Virus record (IMG/VR): IMGVR_UViG_3300005573_000023
Coordinates: 1-39,901 of that record
Origin: a virus
Taxonomy: Duplodnaviria > Caudoviricetes
Strand: one strand, 5' to 3'
DNA: 39,901 bases
Below are positions 6,022 through 20,054 of this stretch, piece after piece; within the stretch, counting starts at the first letter, position 1, and each line of letters starts with the position of its first letter. The notes below the pieces were generated by a model. That model ran no database searches. It had not been told where the DNA came from and saw only the letters and a program-made list of their open reading frames with translations. The position numbers were made by a program, and so were the translations under genes.

Positions 6022-7495
6022 CTTTCCCCCCCATCGAATAATCCAAAACATCATATTCAATCTTCGCCTGCTGCCGGGCCCGCTCTCTGCCTCGCCATCC
6101 CTCTTTTCTGACAGGCCGTGCGAAGGAGAGGGCCAAGGCATCGGCCCGGTTCGGCGAGGGCAATCCCCGCTTTTTCATGTCGTCCTTCGATTCCAGGAGT
6201 AGCTTCCCGGCATTTTTCCCCGTGGCAATCACATGGGCCTCCGGTCCTATCAGGTCGTCGCACAACACACGATCATCTGGGATAGCCCCCCCATCCCGCA
6301 ACCATTGCTTCATCTGCGCCCACATATACATCCGTAGGTTGGCATATTGGGGATCCGGAGATGCCTCCCCGAAGGGGACAAGGATCCAGTCCCGTCCCAA
6401 TTGCTTGCCCGCCGAATAGACCCCGGTCCCATAGCCAAAATCGATAAACACGGCATCTGCCTGGTGCTCATCCTCCAGCCTGGCCAGATGACCCGCAATG
6501 ACCATGTCGTTGTCGTTCTTCTGAAAAGTAGCCAAGATCGAAAAGACCAGGCCCTGCCTCATCCCGATCACCGTTTCATCGCTCCCTGTCCAGGCGTTGT
6601 CGAGGGTAATGATCTTGGGTGCCCACTGATATTTGGTGATATGATACTGCCTGGCCCTCGCCTCCTCGACATACTCGCGGGGGATGAATTGATGATCCGA
6701 GGCAGAGGGGAATTGCCCGAGAATGCGGACCTTAACAAAGTCGGAATCCAGCCCATAATCCTCAATCCATTGATTGATCTGGTCCTTGTTTGTCCGGGTG
6801 ACCGAGCGGCTATCTATTTGCCGGGTGATCCAGCGTGTGCGGAACCGGTGGAAGCAATCAAAGAATCGCCCCTGATTGCGTGTTGGGTTGCCGAAGGCCA
6901 ACCAGAAGGCTCCCCTCTCGGTCATGGCCCCCTCGGTTACCTCCCAGATCACATCATCGATCAGTGAGGCTTCGTCATAAATGATCAGGACATTTTCCTC
7001 ATGCGTGCCGGCAAAGGCTTCTGACCGTTCTCTGGTCCATGGGATCGCTGAGGCGAACCAGGTCTCCGGATGTGGGACGAAGTAGAACTTTGTGGCCGTC
7101 CATTCAAACCAATGGGCATGTATGGCCAAACGATGCCACTTGGCCAATTCACGCCATGTTTTGGTTGTGAGTTGGGTTTGGGTATTGGCCGTGACGACGA
7201 TCTGGGGGTGGGCGCGGGTTGAGATGAACCAGAGGATGATCCAGGAGACCAGGGCTGTCTTGCCGATGCCATGTCCAGAGGCTACCGCCACCCGCACAGA
7301 CTCCCGTGACGTCAGGGTGGCCTTCCCGACCTCCGCCAGGATGTCTGCCTGCCAGGCCTCCGGACCGTCCTCACTGGCAAGCGGCCCCTCGCCCCAAGGA
7401 AAAATGTAATGAACGAAGCCAAGAGGGTCGTCGTAGAACTGGGCGACGTGATCCATCAGGGTCTCATCACGTCTATTGGCCGTCATCACCGCCAT
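6008..7495 (-). CDS. terL: Terminase large subunit
   Basis: Walker A ASGHGIGKT, Walker B IIYDEAS, FGNP, C-terminal SPNRADAL nuclease motif. Confidence 0.96.
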   Translation of the reverse strand: MAVMTANRRDETLMDHVAQFYDDPLGFVHYIFPWGEGPLASEDGPEAWQADILAEVGKATLTSRESVRVAVASGHGIGKTALVSWIILWFISTRAHPQIVVTANTQTQLTTKTWRELAKWHRLAIHAHWFEWTATKFYFVPHPETWFASAIPWTRERSEAFAGTHEENVLIIYDEASLIDDVIWEVTEGAMTERGAFWLAFGNPTRNQGRFFDCFHRFRTRWITRQIDSRSVTRTNKDQINQWIEDYGLDSDFVKVRILGQFPSASDHQFIPREYVEEARARQYHITKYQWAPKIITLDNAWTGSDETVIGMRQGLVFSILATFQKNDNDMVIAGHLARLEDEHQADAVFIDFGYGTGVYSAGKQLGRDWILVPFGEASPDPQYANLRMYMWAQMKQWLRDGGAIPDDRVLCDDLIGPEAHVIATGKNAGKLLLESKDDMKKRGLPSPNRADALALSFARPVRKEGWRGRERARQQAKIEYDVLDYSMGGKDGRQ

Positions 7496-8057
7496 GCGCT
7501 TTTCTTTTGGCCGCTCTGAGTCGCTCCTCCAGATTGGCGATCGTTACGTCTTCGAGTTCGACACGCTCCGCCCACAGGCGGAGATATTTGGCGAGCTTTT
7601 CCAAGGCCGCGGGCTTGTCCCAGAGTTTGATCTTGCTGATTTTGGCCCCGTCTCTGCCATCGATGACGTCCAGGCTGGCAATGGATGCGGCCGTGGCGTC
7701 ATCCCACTCCGATGGTCTCTTGATGGTGCCGTCCTCATTGAGGATTTTGCGCAGATCGGCCATCGCCAAATAGGCGAGTTGCTTGAGGACATTATTTTTG
7801 GTGACGCCAGATCTTTTCAAGATATCTTCTTCGTATAGCCGCACCGCCGCCTGGACCTGTTCGCACCCGCGGCGGCTGCTCAGGATGGTAGAGGCGAGAG
7901 AGTCGGCCGATCTCGGCGAGTATCCGGCGGCTATGGCCGAGGCCCTGGCGTTGTGAGTGATGGCGTAATGGTAAGCAAATATCCGTTGCCTGTAGGTTAG
8001 TCCGAGCTCACGGATACCCGGGATGTCAAGATTGGCTTCAGTTTTTTTTCTGCCCAT
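7473..8057 (-). CDS. terS: Terminase small subunit
   Basis: LTYRQRIFA...NARASAIAAGYS HTH and KIKLWDKPAALEKLAKYL; directly upstream of terL. Confidence 0.92.
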   Translation of the reverse strand: MGRKKTEANLDIPGIRELGLTYRQRIFAYHYAITHNARASAIAAGYSPRSADSLASTILSSRRGCEQVQAAVRLYEEDILKRSGVTKNNVLKQLAYLAMADLRKILNEDGTIKRPSEWDDATAASIASLDVIDGRDGAKISKIKLWDKPAALEKLAKYLRLWAERVELEDVTIANLEERLRAAKRKAHGGDDGQ

Positions 8058-8092: not shown

Positions 8093-8156
8093 ACCGACGC
8101 TAAGGGCGACACCAAGGTAGCGAAACATAGATATGTTCTTCAAGGTTACGAAAAAG

Positions 8157-8203
8157 CCACAATATATTGTGGTTTGAATATTTTTAGACGCTATATCTTG
8201 TAG
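8157..8203. promoter_or_regulatory. Tandem NrdR-type boxes, pair 1
   Basis: CCACAATATATTGTGG (8157-8172, perfect palindrome) and ACGCTATATCTTGTAG (8188-8203); match acaCwAtATaTwGtg; starts 31 bp apart. Confidence 0.75.
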
Positions 8204-8263
8204 CCTGCAAATATTCTTCTCTGGCAATGTGATCCATTTCCCATTTTCGTCTTCCGTTTTTTC

Positions 8264-8279
8264 TGGCACACTTCTTGCT
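8264..8279 (+). promoter_or_regulatory. Sigma54 (RpoN) -24/-12 promoter
   Basis: TGGCAC-ACTTC-TTGCT matches TGGCAC-N5-TTGCW. Confidence 0.6.
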
Positions 8280-8292
8280 TCCAAGCCCCAAG

Positions 8293-8339
8293 ACACAATA
8301 TCTTGCGGTCACTTCTCAGCCCACCACAACATATCGTAT
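8293..8339. promoter_or_regulatory. Tandem NrdR-type boxes, pair 2
   Basis: ACACAATATCTTGCGG (8293-8308) and CCACAACATATCGTAT (8324-8339); starts again 31 bp apart. Confidence 0.7.
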
Positions 8340-8340
8340 C

Positions 8341-8400
8341 TAAAAATTTTTAATTTTTTTGCATTTTTTTCTTGACAACAAGCTAATCATGATATATATT
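8341..8400 (+). promoter_or_regulatory. Strong sigma70 promoter with UP-like element for the MoxR/vWA operon
   Basis: A/T tracts 8341-8370, TTGACA 8372-8377, 17 bp, TATATT 8395-8400. Confidence 0.85.
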
Positions 8401-8422
8401 ATGATCAAAAAATAAAGGAGGA

Positions 8423-8773
8423 ATGATCATAAACAAAACGCATCTGGACCTGTATGGGATTACCCGCTCAATGAGTGGAGTGGTGATCTATGGCCGAGAG
8501 GCCCTAGTCTGTAATTGGGCCTCTATTGATGGCCTACCCCGCCTGGACCCTATGGGCGTCCGGGTTATCGGCCTCGGGGAGGAGATCCCCGAGGTGGAGG
8601 GCCGGGACGCAACCGGCCCAGAAATAGCCGCCATCCTCGGCGGCGTCCGGATAATATATTCGGACGCCCCAGCAGGGGACATTGATGACCTATTCCGTGG
8701 CCGGTGCCCCGGGAAGGTCTATAGCTTCCCGGAATTCGGGGCGATCGTAATCGCCCCGTGCGGCTGGAATTGA
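8423..8773 (+). CDS. Hypothetical protein, first gene of the accessory operon
   Basis: 116-aa ORF behind the promoter; AGGAGG is unusually close to the ATG, so the start is uncertain. Confidence 0.75.
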   Translation: MIINKTHLDLYGITRSMSGVVIYGREALVCNWASIDGLPRLDPMGVRVIGLGEEIPEVEGRDATGPEIAAILGGVRIIYSDAPAGDIDDLFRGRCPGKVYSFPEFGAIVIAPCGWN

Positions 8774-8789: not shown

Positions 8790-9626
8790 ATGAACCTGGA
8801 AACCCGCCTCCGGGAGGCGGGGTATATCCCCCGCCGACCGGAGCTATTAGCGCTCCTGGGGGTCCTGTCCCGGACCAACGGATCGGTCCGGGCCCTCCTA
8901 TTGGAAGGTCCCCCGGGTGCGGGTAAAACAGCCCTCGCCGAAGCGACGGCGAGGGTCCTCGGAGGAGGGTATATCTATGCCCTCCTACACTCTTGGTCAG
9001 ATGACCAAGAGTTGTTCGTCGGAGTTGACGTCGCCGCTGCGGTGGCGGGCGACGCCGACCACGTCCGTCAGCCGGGCATCCTCGCCCGGGCGGCGGAATT
9101 GTCTCTGTCCGCCTCGCCGGGCAGACCGGTAGTGGTCTGTCTGGACGAGGTGGATAAGGTCCAGGAGCGGACCGAATATCTGCTCCTGGATTTTTTACAG
9201 ACCGGGAGGGTCCCGGTCCGGCCTGGTGTCCAGCTCCAGGCCATAACACAAAATCTGCTGGTCTTCATGACCAGTAATGCCACCCGATCCTTCTCCGGCG
9301 CTCTGTTGCGTCGGGTCCGGAGGGTGTGGGTGGCCCCTCTACCAGTTGACCTGGTAGAGGATATCTTGTCTCAGAAGACCAGTCTCCCTCACGGCCTGGT
9401 GAGGGTCACCAGGAAGGTGGCCTATGCCGTGGCAAAGGAGGGAGGCCGTCAGGTCTCTCTCCAGGAGCTGGAGCATCTGCTCCTGGAGCTCTCGTCCGTG
9501 GCAGAGAGCATTGAAGACGTCCGCTACATCGTTAGTGGTTGGACGTCAGATGGAAGAACTCTGCCTGCACGGGACCTGTGTGCCCCTGTGTGGGCAGAGT
9601 TGATAAAGTCCAGGAGGGCCAAATAA
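8790..9626 (+). CDS. MoxR-family (CoxD-like) AAA+ ATPase
   Basis: LLLEGPPGAGKT Walker A, VCLDEVDK Walker B, TSN sensor I, ALLRR arginine finger. Confidence 0.9.
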   Translation: MNLETRLREAGYIPRRPELLALLGVLSRTNGSVRALLLEGPPGAGKTALAEATARVLGGGYIYALLHSWSDDQELFVGVDVAAAVAGDADHVRQPGILARAAELSLSASPGRPVVVCLDEVDKVQERTEYLLLDFLQTGRVPVRPGVQLQAITQNLLVFMTSNATRSFSGALLRRVRRVWVAPLPVDLVEDILSQKTSLPHGLVRVTRKVAYAVAKEGGRQVSLQELEHLLLELSSVAESIEDVRYIVSGWTSDGRTLPARDLCAPVWAELIKSRRAK

Positions 9627-11068
9627 TGCCCTACTGGGCTAAATATTGGACCCTCAGGGACCTCCGGCGCTATGCCGGCAGGCATGGGGTCCAGAAGGCC
9701 GTCCAGAAGGCCAGGGCCTTGACTCAGAAGGATTCTAAGATCCTTCTGGCGGCCGGCTGGGTCCCCGCATATGAGAATGGTGGAGAATACACCATTCATA
9801 AGGGGCCCATAAAGCCCTATATGGACATCCTAAAATGGTGGGGTCTCATCCCACCAGACCTGGCGGCCATTGACCGGGCCATCACTCTGCTTGGCCCGGA
9901 TTATGAGTTCCGGTCGCTACTGACGTGTCCGTGGCGGCCCGACAGGGAAGAGCAGAAGGAAGACAAGAAGGAGGAGGTGATCGAGCCCTCCTCTGGTGGA
10001 ACTCCACAAGAGGAGTCCACAGAGGAGGGAAACAAAGAAGGGGATGACGGTCAGCCCCGTTGCGGGGAAGATGCCGGAGAAGGCTCGAAAGAGGCCTCCG
10101 GGTCTGGCCCCACACTCGGAGAAATCCAGCGGGAGGGTGCGCCCGACGGGGGTGGCCGAATGGAGTCGAGCCCTAATGAGAAGGGTGAGATGACCGAGGG
10201 GAATAGCACGCCCCGGGCGGACACCATAGGTGCCGTCTCCGACACTACCCAGTGCGATGCTGGGTCTGCGGCTGGGGAGATGGACGCCAATGGTGAATCC
10301 CCTAACTTGGCCGAGAAATTTGGGGGCGGGGAGGCCGCATCAACCGCTCCTACCGGATACGCCTTTGGTGGCGTGTTCGCTAAAATTAAAGATGAGAAAA
10401 GCCGCTTGAAGACCCGTGCGTCTGCTGAGGTTGCACGAGCATTGAAGCGGCTTTTTTCTTTGTGGCTCGGCGGCCTGGAGGAATCCCCTCGCATCGACGG
10501 ACGCCGCTTGGTGAGGGAGCTCATCTCTAAACGTTACCAGATTAGCCGGGCCAAACGCCGGGAACTGGAGACCGGCACCATCTTGCTGATGGCCGATGTC
10601 TCTGGATCATGCTCTGCGGCCGCCCCCCAGACGATTGCCGCCTGTCAACAGGTAGCCCTGGAGTTGGATAGAGTTATTTTGATCGTCCACTCTAATGGGT
10701 GCCCTGTTGAGGTCATGACCAGAGACGGCATCTTCGGCATTAACATAGATATAACCAGGTGGAAGAGGGCAGAGGTATTGAACTGGTGGCGACGTGAGAT
10801 GTTCCAAAAATATCATCTCGTCGGTGCCATCAACTTCGGAGACTGGGACGCAGGAGACGTCTTAGAGCTAATCTCCGCTCAGTGCCCTCTGGTATGGTTG
10901 GACAGCTATGCGGCCATAGCTGGCCCAAAACCTGTCCATCGGCATAGCGCCCTCAGAGACCAGATGACCTGGGCTACCCCACCTATCGTCTGGTGGCAGG
11001 GGGTCATTGATATTGGCTCTGCAGCTATAGCCCTTAGAGCTGCAGTAAGGGCTATAACCAAAAAATGA
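9626..11068 (+). CDS. vWA-domain partner protein (CoxE/CobT-like architecture, long acidic linker)
   Basis: TAATG coupling to the ATPase; E/G/S-rich central region; MIDAS DVSGS after a hydrophobic strand; later FGDWD. Confidence 0.8.
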   Translation: MPYWAKYWTLRDLRRYAGRHGVQKAVQKARALTQKDSKILLAAGWVPAYENGGEYTIHKGPIKPYMDILKWWGLIPPDLAAIDRAITLLGPDYEFRSLLTCPWRPDREEQKEDKKEEVIEPSSGGTPQEESTEEGNKEGDDGQPRCGEDAGEGSKEASGSGPTLGEIQREGAPDGGGRMESSPNEKGEMTEGNSTPRADTIGAVSDTTQCDAGSAAGEMDANGESPNLAEKFGGGEAASTAPTGYAFGGVFAKIKDEKSRLKTRASAEVARALKRLFSLWLGGLEESPRIDGRRLVRELISKRYQISRAKRRELETGTILLMADVSGSCSAAAPQTIAACQQVALELDRVILIVHSNGCPVEVMTRDGIFGINIDITRWKRAEVLNWWRREMFQKYHLVGAINFGDWDAGDVLELISAQCPLVWLDSYAAIAGPKPVHRHSALRDQMTWATPPIVWWQGVIDIGSAAIALRAAVRAITKK

Positions 11069-11084: not shown

Positions 11085-11297
11085 ATGAAACTCGCTTGCG
11101 GCAAAGATCCAGTGGCTGAGGGAATTGAGCGTCAGCCAGGGGTATGGGACATGCGTGTCTTTGACCGGCACGTAGAGTCATGTCCAGAGTGCACGGCGCT
11201 GGTCCGTAAGATCCGCCGGCGCTTGGAGGACGCCCTACGTAAGGGCGCTCCATCTACAATCATTGTAACAGCCAAAGACCTGGGCATCAAGGCTTAG
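11085..11297 (+). CDS. Small zinc-finger protein with ZAS (zf-HC2, anti-sigma-type) motif
   Basis: C5-x23-H29-x3-C33-x2-C36; GGGGGTG SD. Confidence 0.7.
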   Translation: MKLACGKDPVAEGIERQPGVWDMRVFDRHVESCPECTALVRKIRRRLEDALRKGAPSTIIVTAKDLGIKA

Positions 11298-11514: not shown

Positions 11515-11712
11515 ATGAAAGAAGCAAGCAAAAACATGTTCCTACGCAACATTCCCCAGTCTGTCCATCGGGCGCTGAAGGCCCGTGCGGCCCTGGAGGG
11601 CAAGTCTATGCAGGGACTGATCCTGGACCTGATCTGGGAATACATCAACAGCCCACTTCCGGGCGTGGGAAAGAAAAAATTAGACACTAAGCATGGCGAT
11701 AACAAACAATAA
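11515..11712 (+). CDS. Arc/FitA-like ribbon-helix-helix DNA-binding protein
   Basis: MFLRNIPQSVHRALKARAALEGKSMQGLI; GGAGG SD before ATG 11515. Confidence 0.85.
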   Translation: MKEASKNMFLRNIPQSVHRALKARAALEGKSMQGLILDLIWEYINSPLPGVGKKKLDTKHGDNKQ

Positions 11713-13725: not shown

Positions 13726-13983
13726 CTATAAGTCTCTCGGCGTAACCTCGGCCCCATTCTCGTCATTCCAAATTACAGATGCTTCGCAACACCTGGACAA
13801 GACGGCCAGGTAAGTGTCACTATACCTATGCCCCCAGGCCTCATATCCGCCTATCCCGACATCGGCAACAAACATCCCATCACGATCGAAGGTCCTCCCA
13901 CATAGCGTACAACGATAGAGATGGCCATCATCGTGCGTTAGTCTAATTGATCCTCCTTCTTGCCTGTATTCTCCCCTCGCCAT
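13726..13983 (-). CDS. Zn-ribbon small protein, paralog A
   Basis: CTLCGRTFDR...DVGIGGYEAWG...SRCCE. Confidence 0.75.
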   Translation of the reverse strand: MARGEYRQEGGSIRLTHDDGHLYRCTLCGRTFDRDGMFVADVGIGGYEAWGHRYSDTYLAVLSRCCEASVIWNDENGAEVTPRDL

Positions 13984-14371: not shown

Positions 14372-14602
14372 CTACAGATCATCTAATAGGATGACCCTAC
14401 GGTCATCATCGTTCGTCAATACCATTGTCTCGCAACATAGCGACATGACGGCCAAGCAAATATCTTGCCCCCTGCTCCCCCATGCCTCGTATGACCCGAT
14501 ACCGACATCGCCTACAAATAGACCACGACGGTCAAAGGTCCGGCCGCAACAGCTGCACATATAGGGATAGTCCAGTGCGTCTATGTATGGTTGTTTGCCC
14601 AT
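14372..14602 (-). CDS. Zn-ribbon small protein, paralog B
   Basis: CSCCGRTFDR...DVGIGSYEAWG...SLCCE. Confidence 0.75.
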   Translation of the reverse strand: MGKQPYIDALDYPYMCSCCGRTFDRRGLFVGDVGIGSYEAWGSRGQDICLAVMSLCCETMVLTNDDDRRVILLDDL

Positions 14603-14628
14603 AGATTCCCCTCCTTTTTCGACCATCT

Positions 14629-18146: not shown

Positions 18147-18195
18147 GAGATACAACAATTGTTGGAACATGTCAAGCCAAAAATACAACAATTAT
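18147..18195. promoter_or_regulatory. Immunity region: leftward lytic promoter and operators
   Basis: Minus TTGACA (18175-18170)-17 bp-TATCTC; palindrome CAACAATTGTTG (18153-18164) in the spacer; ATACAACAATT repeated at 18150 and 18183. Confidence 0.7.
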
Positions 18196-18209
18196 TTAAA
18201 TTAAGTTAA

Positions 18210-19874: not shown

Positions 19875-20054
19875 AACCTTGCAGAACCTTGCCGACCCAC
19901 CCATATCTAATCGATAATATTACAGAACATTCGGGTTCGAACCCCGTTGGGACCACCAGATTTTCATAATATTTCCAATATATTGCCAACTTGATGGACC
20001 TTGCGAAACCTTGCAGGATGGGATTGCCGGCAATGATTGAAATTGCAACCTTGC
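19875..20054 (+). repeat. Integrase arm-type sites flanking the att core
   Basis: (A/G)ACCTTGC at 19875, 19885, 19997, 20007, 20047; pairs are 10 bp apart. Confidence 0.85.
19932..19958 (+). mobile_element. attP core = 3' end of a tRNA (probably tRNA-Glu)
   Basis: CGGG-TTCGAAC-CCCGT-TGGGACC-A-CCA: T-arm, acceptor strand, discriminator and CCA; no 5' half. Confidence 0.9.

Follow-up and report, generated by a model that had tools for sequence, protein, structure and literature searches.

Paired NrdR-type boxes around a predicted sigma54 promoter in a temperate podophage without ribonucleotide reductase genes

The window (39.9 kb; the whole stretch of DNA analysed here) corresponds to the complete circular genome of a temperate podophage and carries, in the gap between its leftward terS gene and a rightward accessory block, four NrdR-type boxes organised in two pairs with a predicted sigma54 (RpoN) promoter between them. 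On sequence grounds we favour, with a probability of ca. 0.5, a reading in which host NrdR together with dATP would repress this promoter, which is predicted to drive a small accessory operon, until replication takes place. The operator itself is of a known kind; the part that seems new is its setting on a phage, before genes other than ribonucleotide reductase (RNR) genes and at a sigma54 promoter. The -24/-12 site went unseen in the initial annotation, which had suggested that the boxes time late or accessory genes according to the dNTP status of the host. The idea of a dNTP-status switch is supported by the present data, but its target is more likely the sigma54 promoter of the rightward operon, and the link to the MoxR-vWA genes appears incidental when the relative G051 is considered (see below).

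Gene context of the boxes

The window has a 121-bp terminal repeat and a completeness of 100%. Its genome contains a podovirus head and tail block (with matches to Bbp16, Bbp19 and GP7), which we take to be BPP-1-like, an integrase and two divergent HTH regulators. The features surrounding the boxes are listed in Table 1. The rightward block comprises, in this order, a 116-aa ORF, a MoxR-type AAA+ ATPase, a vWA-like ORF, a 70-aa zinc-finger-like ORF and a ribbon-helix-helix (RHH) ORF, so that the boxes do lie, as first described, between the divergent packaging/structural operon and the MoxR-vWA operon. The phage had also been described as having no RNR gene and, in agreement, a domain search of the two complete genomes (the window phage and its relative G051) returned no ATP-cone and no class I/II or class III RNR domain. 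Likewise, no Sigma54_activat domain is encoded by either phage according to the domain search. The MoxR ATPase was considered as a sigma54 activator and rejected, having no Sigma54_activat match and being absent from G051.

Table 1. Features of the terS-accessory block region and of the attachment site (window coordinates)
Feature	Position	Strand	Remarks
terS	7473..8057	-	first gene of the divergent packaging/virion block; start codon 8057, 100 bp from box 1
Short repeats GGTAGCGA / GGTTACGA and imperfect inverted repeat	8097..8153	.	partly conserved in G051
Box 1 (pair 1)	8157..8172	.	CCACAATATATTGTGG; fully palindromic; -133 to -118 relative to the predicted +1; core 6/6 in G051
Box 2 (pair 1)	8188..8203	.	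ACGCTATATCTTGTAG; 15-bp linker from box 1; -102 to -87
Segment of ca. 57 bp absent from G051	8197..8253	.	shifts pair 1 by 5.4 helical turns
Predicted sigma54 (RpoN) -24/-12 promoter	8264-8278	+	TGGCAC-N5-TTGC; between the pairs, pointing away from terS
Box 3 (pair 2)	8293..8308	.	ACACAATATCTTGCGG; +4 to +19 relative to the predicted +1; offset identical in G051
Box 4 (pair 2)	8324..8339	.	CCACAACATATCGTAT; +35 to +50; linker of 15 bp (14 bp in G051)
Sigma70-type promoter	8372..8400	+	TTGACA-17-TATATT; strong, 11/12 match; 32 bp beyond box 4; hexamers unchanged in G051
AT-rich near-palindrome covering the -10 of the sigma70-type promoter	8386..8405	.	identical in G051
116-aa ORF	8423..8773	+	heads the rightward block; assigned to no family; homologue in G051 is 75% identical
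MoxR-type AAA+ ATPase and vWA-like ORF	8790..11068	+	absent from G051; vWA call weak (Pfam E 0.067)
70-aa HxxxCxxC zinc-finger-like ORF	11085-11297	+	zf-HC2 E 0.008, below cut-off; kept in G051
65-aa FitA-like RHH ORF	11515-11712	+	kept in G051
attP core	19933..19958	+	26-mer, 3' end of tRNA-Glu(CTC); identical in G051

The product of the 116-aa ORF gave a confident model (pLDDT 89.5) and five homologues were found, some of which are extended at the N-terminus by a stretch resembling an RHH domain by eye. A structure search matched the model to a single uncharacterised phage protein; against the PDB no match was obtained at E 0.001 (best Z 3.4) and the Atlas returned nothing useful. The HxxxCxxC motif of the 70-aa ORF resembles zinc anti-sigma domains.

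Accessory genes on the opposite strand sever the late block from the early operon, and the late block would therefore need a promoter of its own in or near the terS gap. This argues for an alternative that we nonetheless regard as unlikely, namely that pair 1 or both pairs control a leftward terS promoter, the packaging and virion genes thus waiting for dATP drain or NrdR titration. Box 1 is indeed close to the terS start (Table 1) and only 4 bp away from the repeats at 8097-8153. However, a promoter search of the region found no leftward promoter overlapping a box, and the only candidate noticed by eye in this direction is a weak TTGACA located 65 bp from box 1. The repeats themselves are candidates for the enhancer of a host activator or for terminase or late-activator sites. 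A fifth box-like site was observed in the same area (8118-8133, 5/6 positions; 6404-6419 in G051, 6/6 positions), 38-39 bp upstream of box 1 and in the wrong phase for pairing.

The boxes follow the rules of NrdR operators

The arrangement initially described, four 16-mers forming two pairs with an equal 31-bp spacing, was borne out by positions, scores and shuffles. No other site in the window matches the consensus as well as the four boxes (20, 19, 18 and 18 of 22, the next being 16), and they form its only pairs at 31-32 bp, a pattern that occurred in none of 60 composition-preserving block shuffles. According to a mutational study (PMC13584703), NrdR boxes are defined by C4, A6, A8, T9, T11 and G13 and by at least 63% A+T between C4 and G13, linker length matters while linker sequence does not, and NrdRs bind heterologous boxes. 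All four phage boxes display the six positions (6/6 each) with a core A+T content of 75-100%, and their linkers, of 15 and 15 bp in the window and of 15 and 14 bp in G051, lie within the 14-17 bp range of the linker rule (the alternative being 24-27 bp). Boxes with the six positions number 17 in the genome, of which only these four are paired at 20-60 bp. High-affinity NrdR pairs of E. coli have 15-bp linkers (PMC12176259), a 14-bp linker was bound in vitro by three of four NrdRs tested (2-169 nM; PMC12051234), and the NrdR tetramer spans three turns, requires dATP plus ATP and kinks the DNA by ca. 90 degrees per box (PMC9110341). Binding of NrdR to the phage boxes is thus predicted and considered very probable.

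The phage boxes resemble nrdJ and nrdD operators of the candidate host lineages (see below). For instance, pair 1 and the nrdJ operator of one such lineage (L406) agree at 14/16 and 14/16 positions in the boxes and at 4/15 in the linker. A position weight matrix was derived from 27 boxes of these lineages and scored against the rest of the genome, a check proposed in the initial annotation. With this matrix, which is partly circular, the boxes stand above background (ranks 1, 2, 3 and 6 in the window) and both pairs are far ahead (33.4 and 27.5 versus 14.3 for the next pair). Overall, the NrdR-type identity put forward at the outset is well supported by the box rules, by the likeness to nrdJ/nrdD operators and by the occurrence of NrdR in candidate host lineages.

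The same pattern was surveyed in viral contigs, where pairs at 31 bp were found in ca. 1900 stretches versus ca. 270 at the control spacing of 36 bp. After dropping loci inside ORFs of at least 120 aa (6/80 at 31 bp and 64/80 in the control, which leaves a control of n=16), 74/80 pairs at 31 bp were intergenic as opposed to 16/80 at 36 bp. This geometry is that of NrdR and argues against the boxes being sites for a phage protein (repressor, RHH or TerS) or the relic of a captured host promoter, with NrdR binding incidental, an explanation that we find doubtful. In its favour, an RHH gene belongs to the same operon, and the two ACAACAATT repeats found at window 18150-18200 between the divergent HTH genes (18152 and 18185, 33 bp apart) share a similar half-site. 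These repeats, the first of which lies inside a palindrome, are likely immunity operators, but they have no G13 and do not score as boxes. Sites for a phage protein are also at odds with the way in which box cores are conserved between the window and G051 while linkers drift.

A predicted sigma54 promoter between the pairs

The -24/-12 site matches the sigma54 consensus at 10/10 positions and is the sole perfect match in the genome, for 0.07 expected per shuffled genome; the +1 is predicted at 8290. According to PMC3844500, TGGCAC-N5-TTGC is the form of mapped sigma54 sites and the enhancer zone extends 70-150 bp upstream. Pair 1 (-133 to -87) falls in this zone in the window phage, and pair 2 spans +4 to +50 of the predicted promoter. 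No other promoter-like element was found to touch a pair, and the offset of box 3 relative to the sigma54 site is equal in both phages. The strong sigma70-type site located downstream is overlapped by no box; it might bypass all four boxes, which counts against gating. The near-palindrome covering its -10 is a candidate operator for the RHH protein of the accessory operon.

Comparison with the relative G051

The one close relative retrieved by a terminase search (L005/G051; 37.9 kb, complete) is 95% identical over the structural block. It has no MoxR-vWA genes and retains the 116-aa, zinc-finger and RHH ORFs, the four boxes and the sigma54 site. Since the region occurs in only two distinct genomes, the conservation argument rests on this one comparison, in which the 18/18 core positions of the three alignable boxes and the 10/10 positions of the sigma54 site are unchanged versus 182/232 other intergenic positions (Fisher p 0.002). 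Linkers have drifted, with 10/15 and 10/14 positions identical, and box 2 of G051 has lost one core position (5/6).

The position of pair 2, +4 to +50, differs by no more than one base between the phages. The distance from box 1 to box 3, in contrast, is of 136 bp in the window and 79 bp (7.5 turns) in G051, pair 1 having moved by 5.4 helical turns; in G051 it is found at -76 to -30 and ends 3 bp before the -24 element. The distance of 136 bp (ca. 13 turns) given in the initial annotation is thus correct for the window but is not conserved. In-phase looping between the pairs is unlikely given the 5.4-turn shift, and 13-turn phasing was rejected. Since G051 keeps the sites without MoxR-vWA and at 79 bp, neither the MoxR genes nor the 13 turns are essential, and a specific tie of the boxes to MoxR-vWA was also rejected.

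The displacement of pair 1 by 5.4 turns further speaks against a positive role for NrdR at this pair. IHF is known to bend DNA at sigma54 promoters, and a bend of ca. 180 degrees at pair 1 would similarly bring the activator to the polymerase at high dATP, with pair 2 capping the output. The kink of ca. 90 degrees per box described in PMC9110341 would suit such a role, as would the fact that, in G051 and in several unrelated viral loci, a pair separates the enhancer zone from the -24 element at an almost constant distance. Yet pair 2, lying over +4 to +50, would block the very same transcript, and the cited literature, in the parts consulted, describes NrdR solely as a repressor; altogether, this role appears highly improbable.

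Candidate hosts

The attP 26-mer was found in 58 genome stretches, most of which name Nitrospirota or Deltaproteobacteria/Thermodesulfobacteriota in their titles, and corresponded to the 3' end of tRNA-Glu(CTC) in 6/7 loci tested. It points to a host of the Nitrospirota/Desulfobacterota type, an assignment that rests on the tRNA end. An integrase search gave best identities of 52-64% with an uncultured deltaproteobacterium, no tRNA being called nearby. Fifty of the 58 stretches were searched (five that repeated a genome and three others were omitted), these genomes being candidate hosts by virtue of the tRNA end. NrdR was detected above cut-off in 45/50 and RpoN in 48/50. The strict box-pair pattern was present in 15/50 versus 1/50 with a reversed control, and pairs precede nrdD or nrdJ in 9 of the 15 host loci fetched (the ORF scan covered 14 ORFs of 13 loci). 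The idea that a sigma54-NrdR promoter was captured from a host was rejected, as no pair-plus-sigma54 match was found in the 50 candidate genomes, most of which are incomplete; the absence of such a match also weighs against the relic mentioned above.

Another alternative is that the phage boxes serve mainly as a sponge, replicating genomes titrating NrdR and derepressing host nrdD/nrdJ so as to raise the dNTP supply. A phage devoid of RNR that carries two full operators per genome, and candidate hosts with NrdR pairs at nrdD or nrdJ, are consistent with this view. A sponge, however, requires no fixed promoter offset, yet the two phages do not differ in the offset between box 3 and the sigma54 site, and the boxes occupy exact repressor positions on the predicted promoter. 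Moreover, two operators are few when compared to the array carried by another viral contig (L142, see below), and dNTP consumption should by itself free NrdR according to the mechanism given in PMC9110341. As a main role the sponge is therefore improbable; NrdR titration is likely a by-product whatever the main role.

Box pairs in other viral contigs

Among the 74 intergenic pairs of the survey, six precede nrdD, six precede TerS or TerL and two precede other head genes, the neighbours being mostly unannotated. The six terminase cases fit the control of terS considered above, as does an unrelated phage locus (L443) in which the pair is also backed by terS. The survey nevertheless showed no significant enrichment of terminase genes behind phage NrdR pairs (6/74 versus 0/16 in the control, p 0.59). 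The boxes were rejected as a family trait of the window terminase, no upstream pair being found in 78 distant TerL and 22 distant TerS loci, of which 62/78 (at least 1.2 kb) and 17/22 (at least 400 bp), respectively, had enough upstream DNA. Conservation upstream of terS, to which the initial annotation had drawn attention, therefore holds for the MoxR-less G051 but does not extend to distant terminase loci.

In a scan run without control, a pair was found directly upstream of a sigma54 site in 12 viral loci, a total that could be due to chance according to a rough estimate. The gap between pair and sigma54 site is 7-9 bp in 6/12 loci, one of these six lying inside ORFs with weak boxes, and a second pair occurs in three of the six; this clustering has a p of ca. 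0.06 after merging related loci, for a gap window chosen post hoc. The reverse order, a sigma54 site followed by a pair, was found in eight loci, one being the window phage and the others mostly weak. Among 121 unselected phage box pairs, a single one has a sigma54-like site within 120 bp. The pair-plus-sigma54 design is thus rare and its recurrence is suggestive only.

Several of these loci are described here individually. L443 (1000-1130) displays, in the same order as G051, terS, GGTTGC repeats, an NrdR-like pair, a sigma54 site and a sigma70-like site, with a divergent terS and a 3-bp gap between pair and sigma54 site as in G051. In L438, L444 and L447, a gap of 7-8 bp separates the NrdR pair from a strong sigma54 site downstream of it, and the ORFs that follow are similar, unannotated and 127-183 aa long; those of L444 and L447 are 31% identical, and a second upstream pair is present in two of the three loci. 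In L329 (2501-2575), a sigma54-like site precedes a good NrdR pair, and the ORF behind them resembles a glycosyltransferase by eye. Finally, L142 carries an array of ca. 500 bp with many NrdR-type boxes at periods of 31-32 bp and ca. 47 bp, and is a better sponge candidate than the window locus.

Proposed regulation and related systems

In the favoured reading, repression by NrdR at the sigma54 promoter, a resting cell or lysogen would have one NrdR tetramer on pair 2 (+4 to +50), blocking initiation, and a second on pair 1, in the way of the activator or of the polymerase at its upstream edge. Upon replication, dATP would drop while genome copies rise and outnumber the repressor, and NrdR would leave. 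A host enhancer-binding protein, none being phage-encoded, could then fire the promoter, which would act as an AND gate with dNTP demand as one input and a further host signal as the other. Its products would be the 116-aa protein, the zinc-finger ORF product, the RHH protein and, in phages that have these genes, MoxR-vWA, and the downstream sigma70 promoter would supply a level of expression independent of NrdR. Lytic infection by phage SpSL1 is reported to upregulate the pneumococcal NrdR regulon (PMC6755750), which indicates that a releasing signal exists during infection.

More tentatively, phages may build recurring two-input promoters from host parts, needing no regulator of their own. 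An NrdR-clamped sigma54 promoter would fire on dATP drain plus a second host signal, the same region may time the divergent terminase operon, and the U-turn bend could possibly loop the DNA as IHF does.

The boxes share with bacterial RNR operators (E. coli nrdAB, nrdHIEF and nrdDG; S. coelicolor nrdRJ and nrdAB) two 16-bp partly palindromic boxes with a conserved, AT-rich core, and a 15-bp linker of free sequence; like those operators they would also lie on a promoter if the predicted sigma54 site is active. They differ in being phage-borne, before genes unrelated to nucleotide reduction and at a predicted sigma54 instead of a sigma70-type promoter; the window locus is thus not upstream of nrd genes, as in the classical NrdR-RNR regulon. 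Listeria nrdAB also has two pairs at one promoter, distal and proximal, that are thought to tighten or tune repression. Unlike that site, which controls RNR, the phage pairs are 136 or 79 bp apart with a sigma54 site in between. Host repressors are known to control prophage genes, as illustrated by LexA boxes on phage antirepressor or late genes. Here too, a phage promoter would read a global repressor of the host for timing, but it would respond to the dATP pool or to titration of the repressor and not to DNA damage. To our knowledge, NrdR has been described almost solely as a repressor of RNR genes. In the literature searched, no report was found that places NrdR boxes at sigma54 promoters or at phage genes other than those for RNR. 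With the sigma54 promoters described in PMC3844500, the phage site has in common the TGGCAC-N5-TTGC element at -24/-12 and room for an enhancer ca. 70-150 bp upstream; it differs from them in being phage-borne, in having no phage activator gene and in that NrdR-type operators cover both its start site and part of its enhancer zone.

If the favoured reading is true, a phage without RNR would read the DNA-precursor pool of its host, or its own copy number, by means of ca. 200 bp and no gene. This bears on gene timing in small temperate phages that have no evident late activator and on a possible sensing of dNTP-depleting defences by phages, the sigma54 context adding a second input and a promoter class for which no NrdR report was found. 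The locus also offers a natural comparison, with and without MoxR-vWA and with two pair spacings, together with a clue to the host.

Other features of the genome

Two similar Cys-rich ORFs of 84-85 aa, both belonging to phrog_19173, flank the RusA gene (13726-13983 and 14372-14626); G051 has no copy between RusA and the replication initiator gene. Finally, an Asn/Ser/Thr-rich ORF of ca. 350 aa on the minus strand runs from the end of the window to position 780, spanning the origin of the circular genome, and probably encodes a beta-helix-like virion protein.
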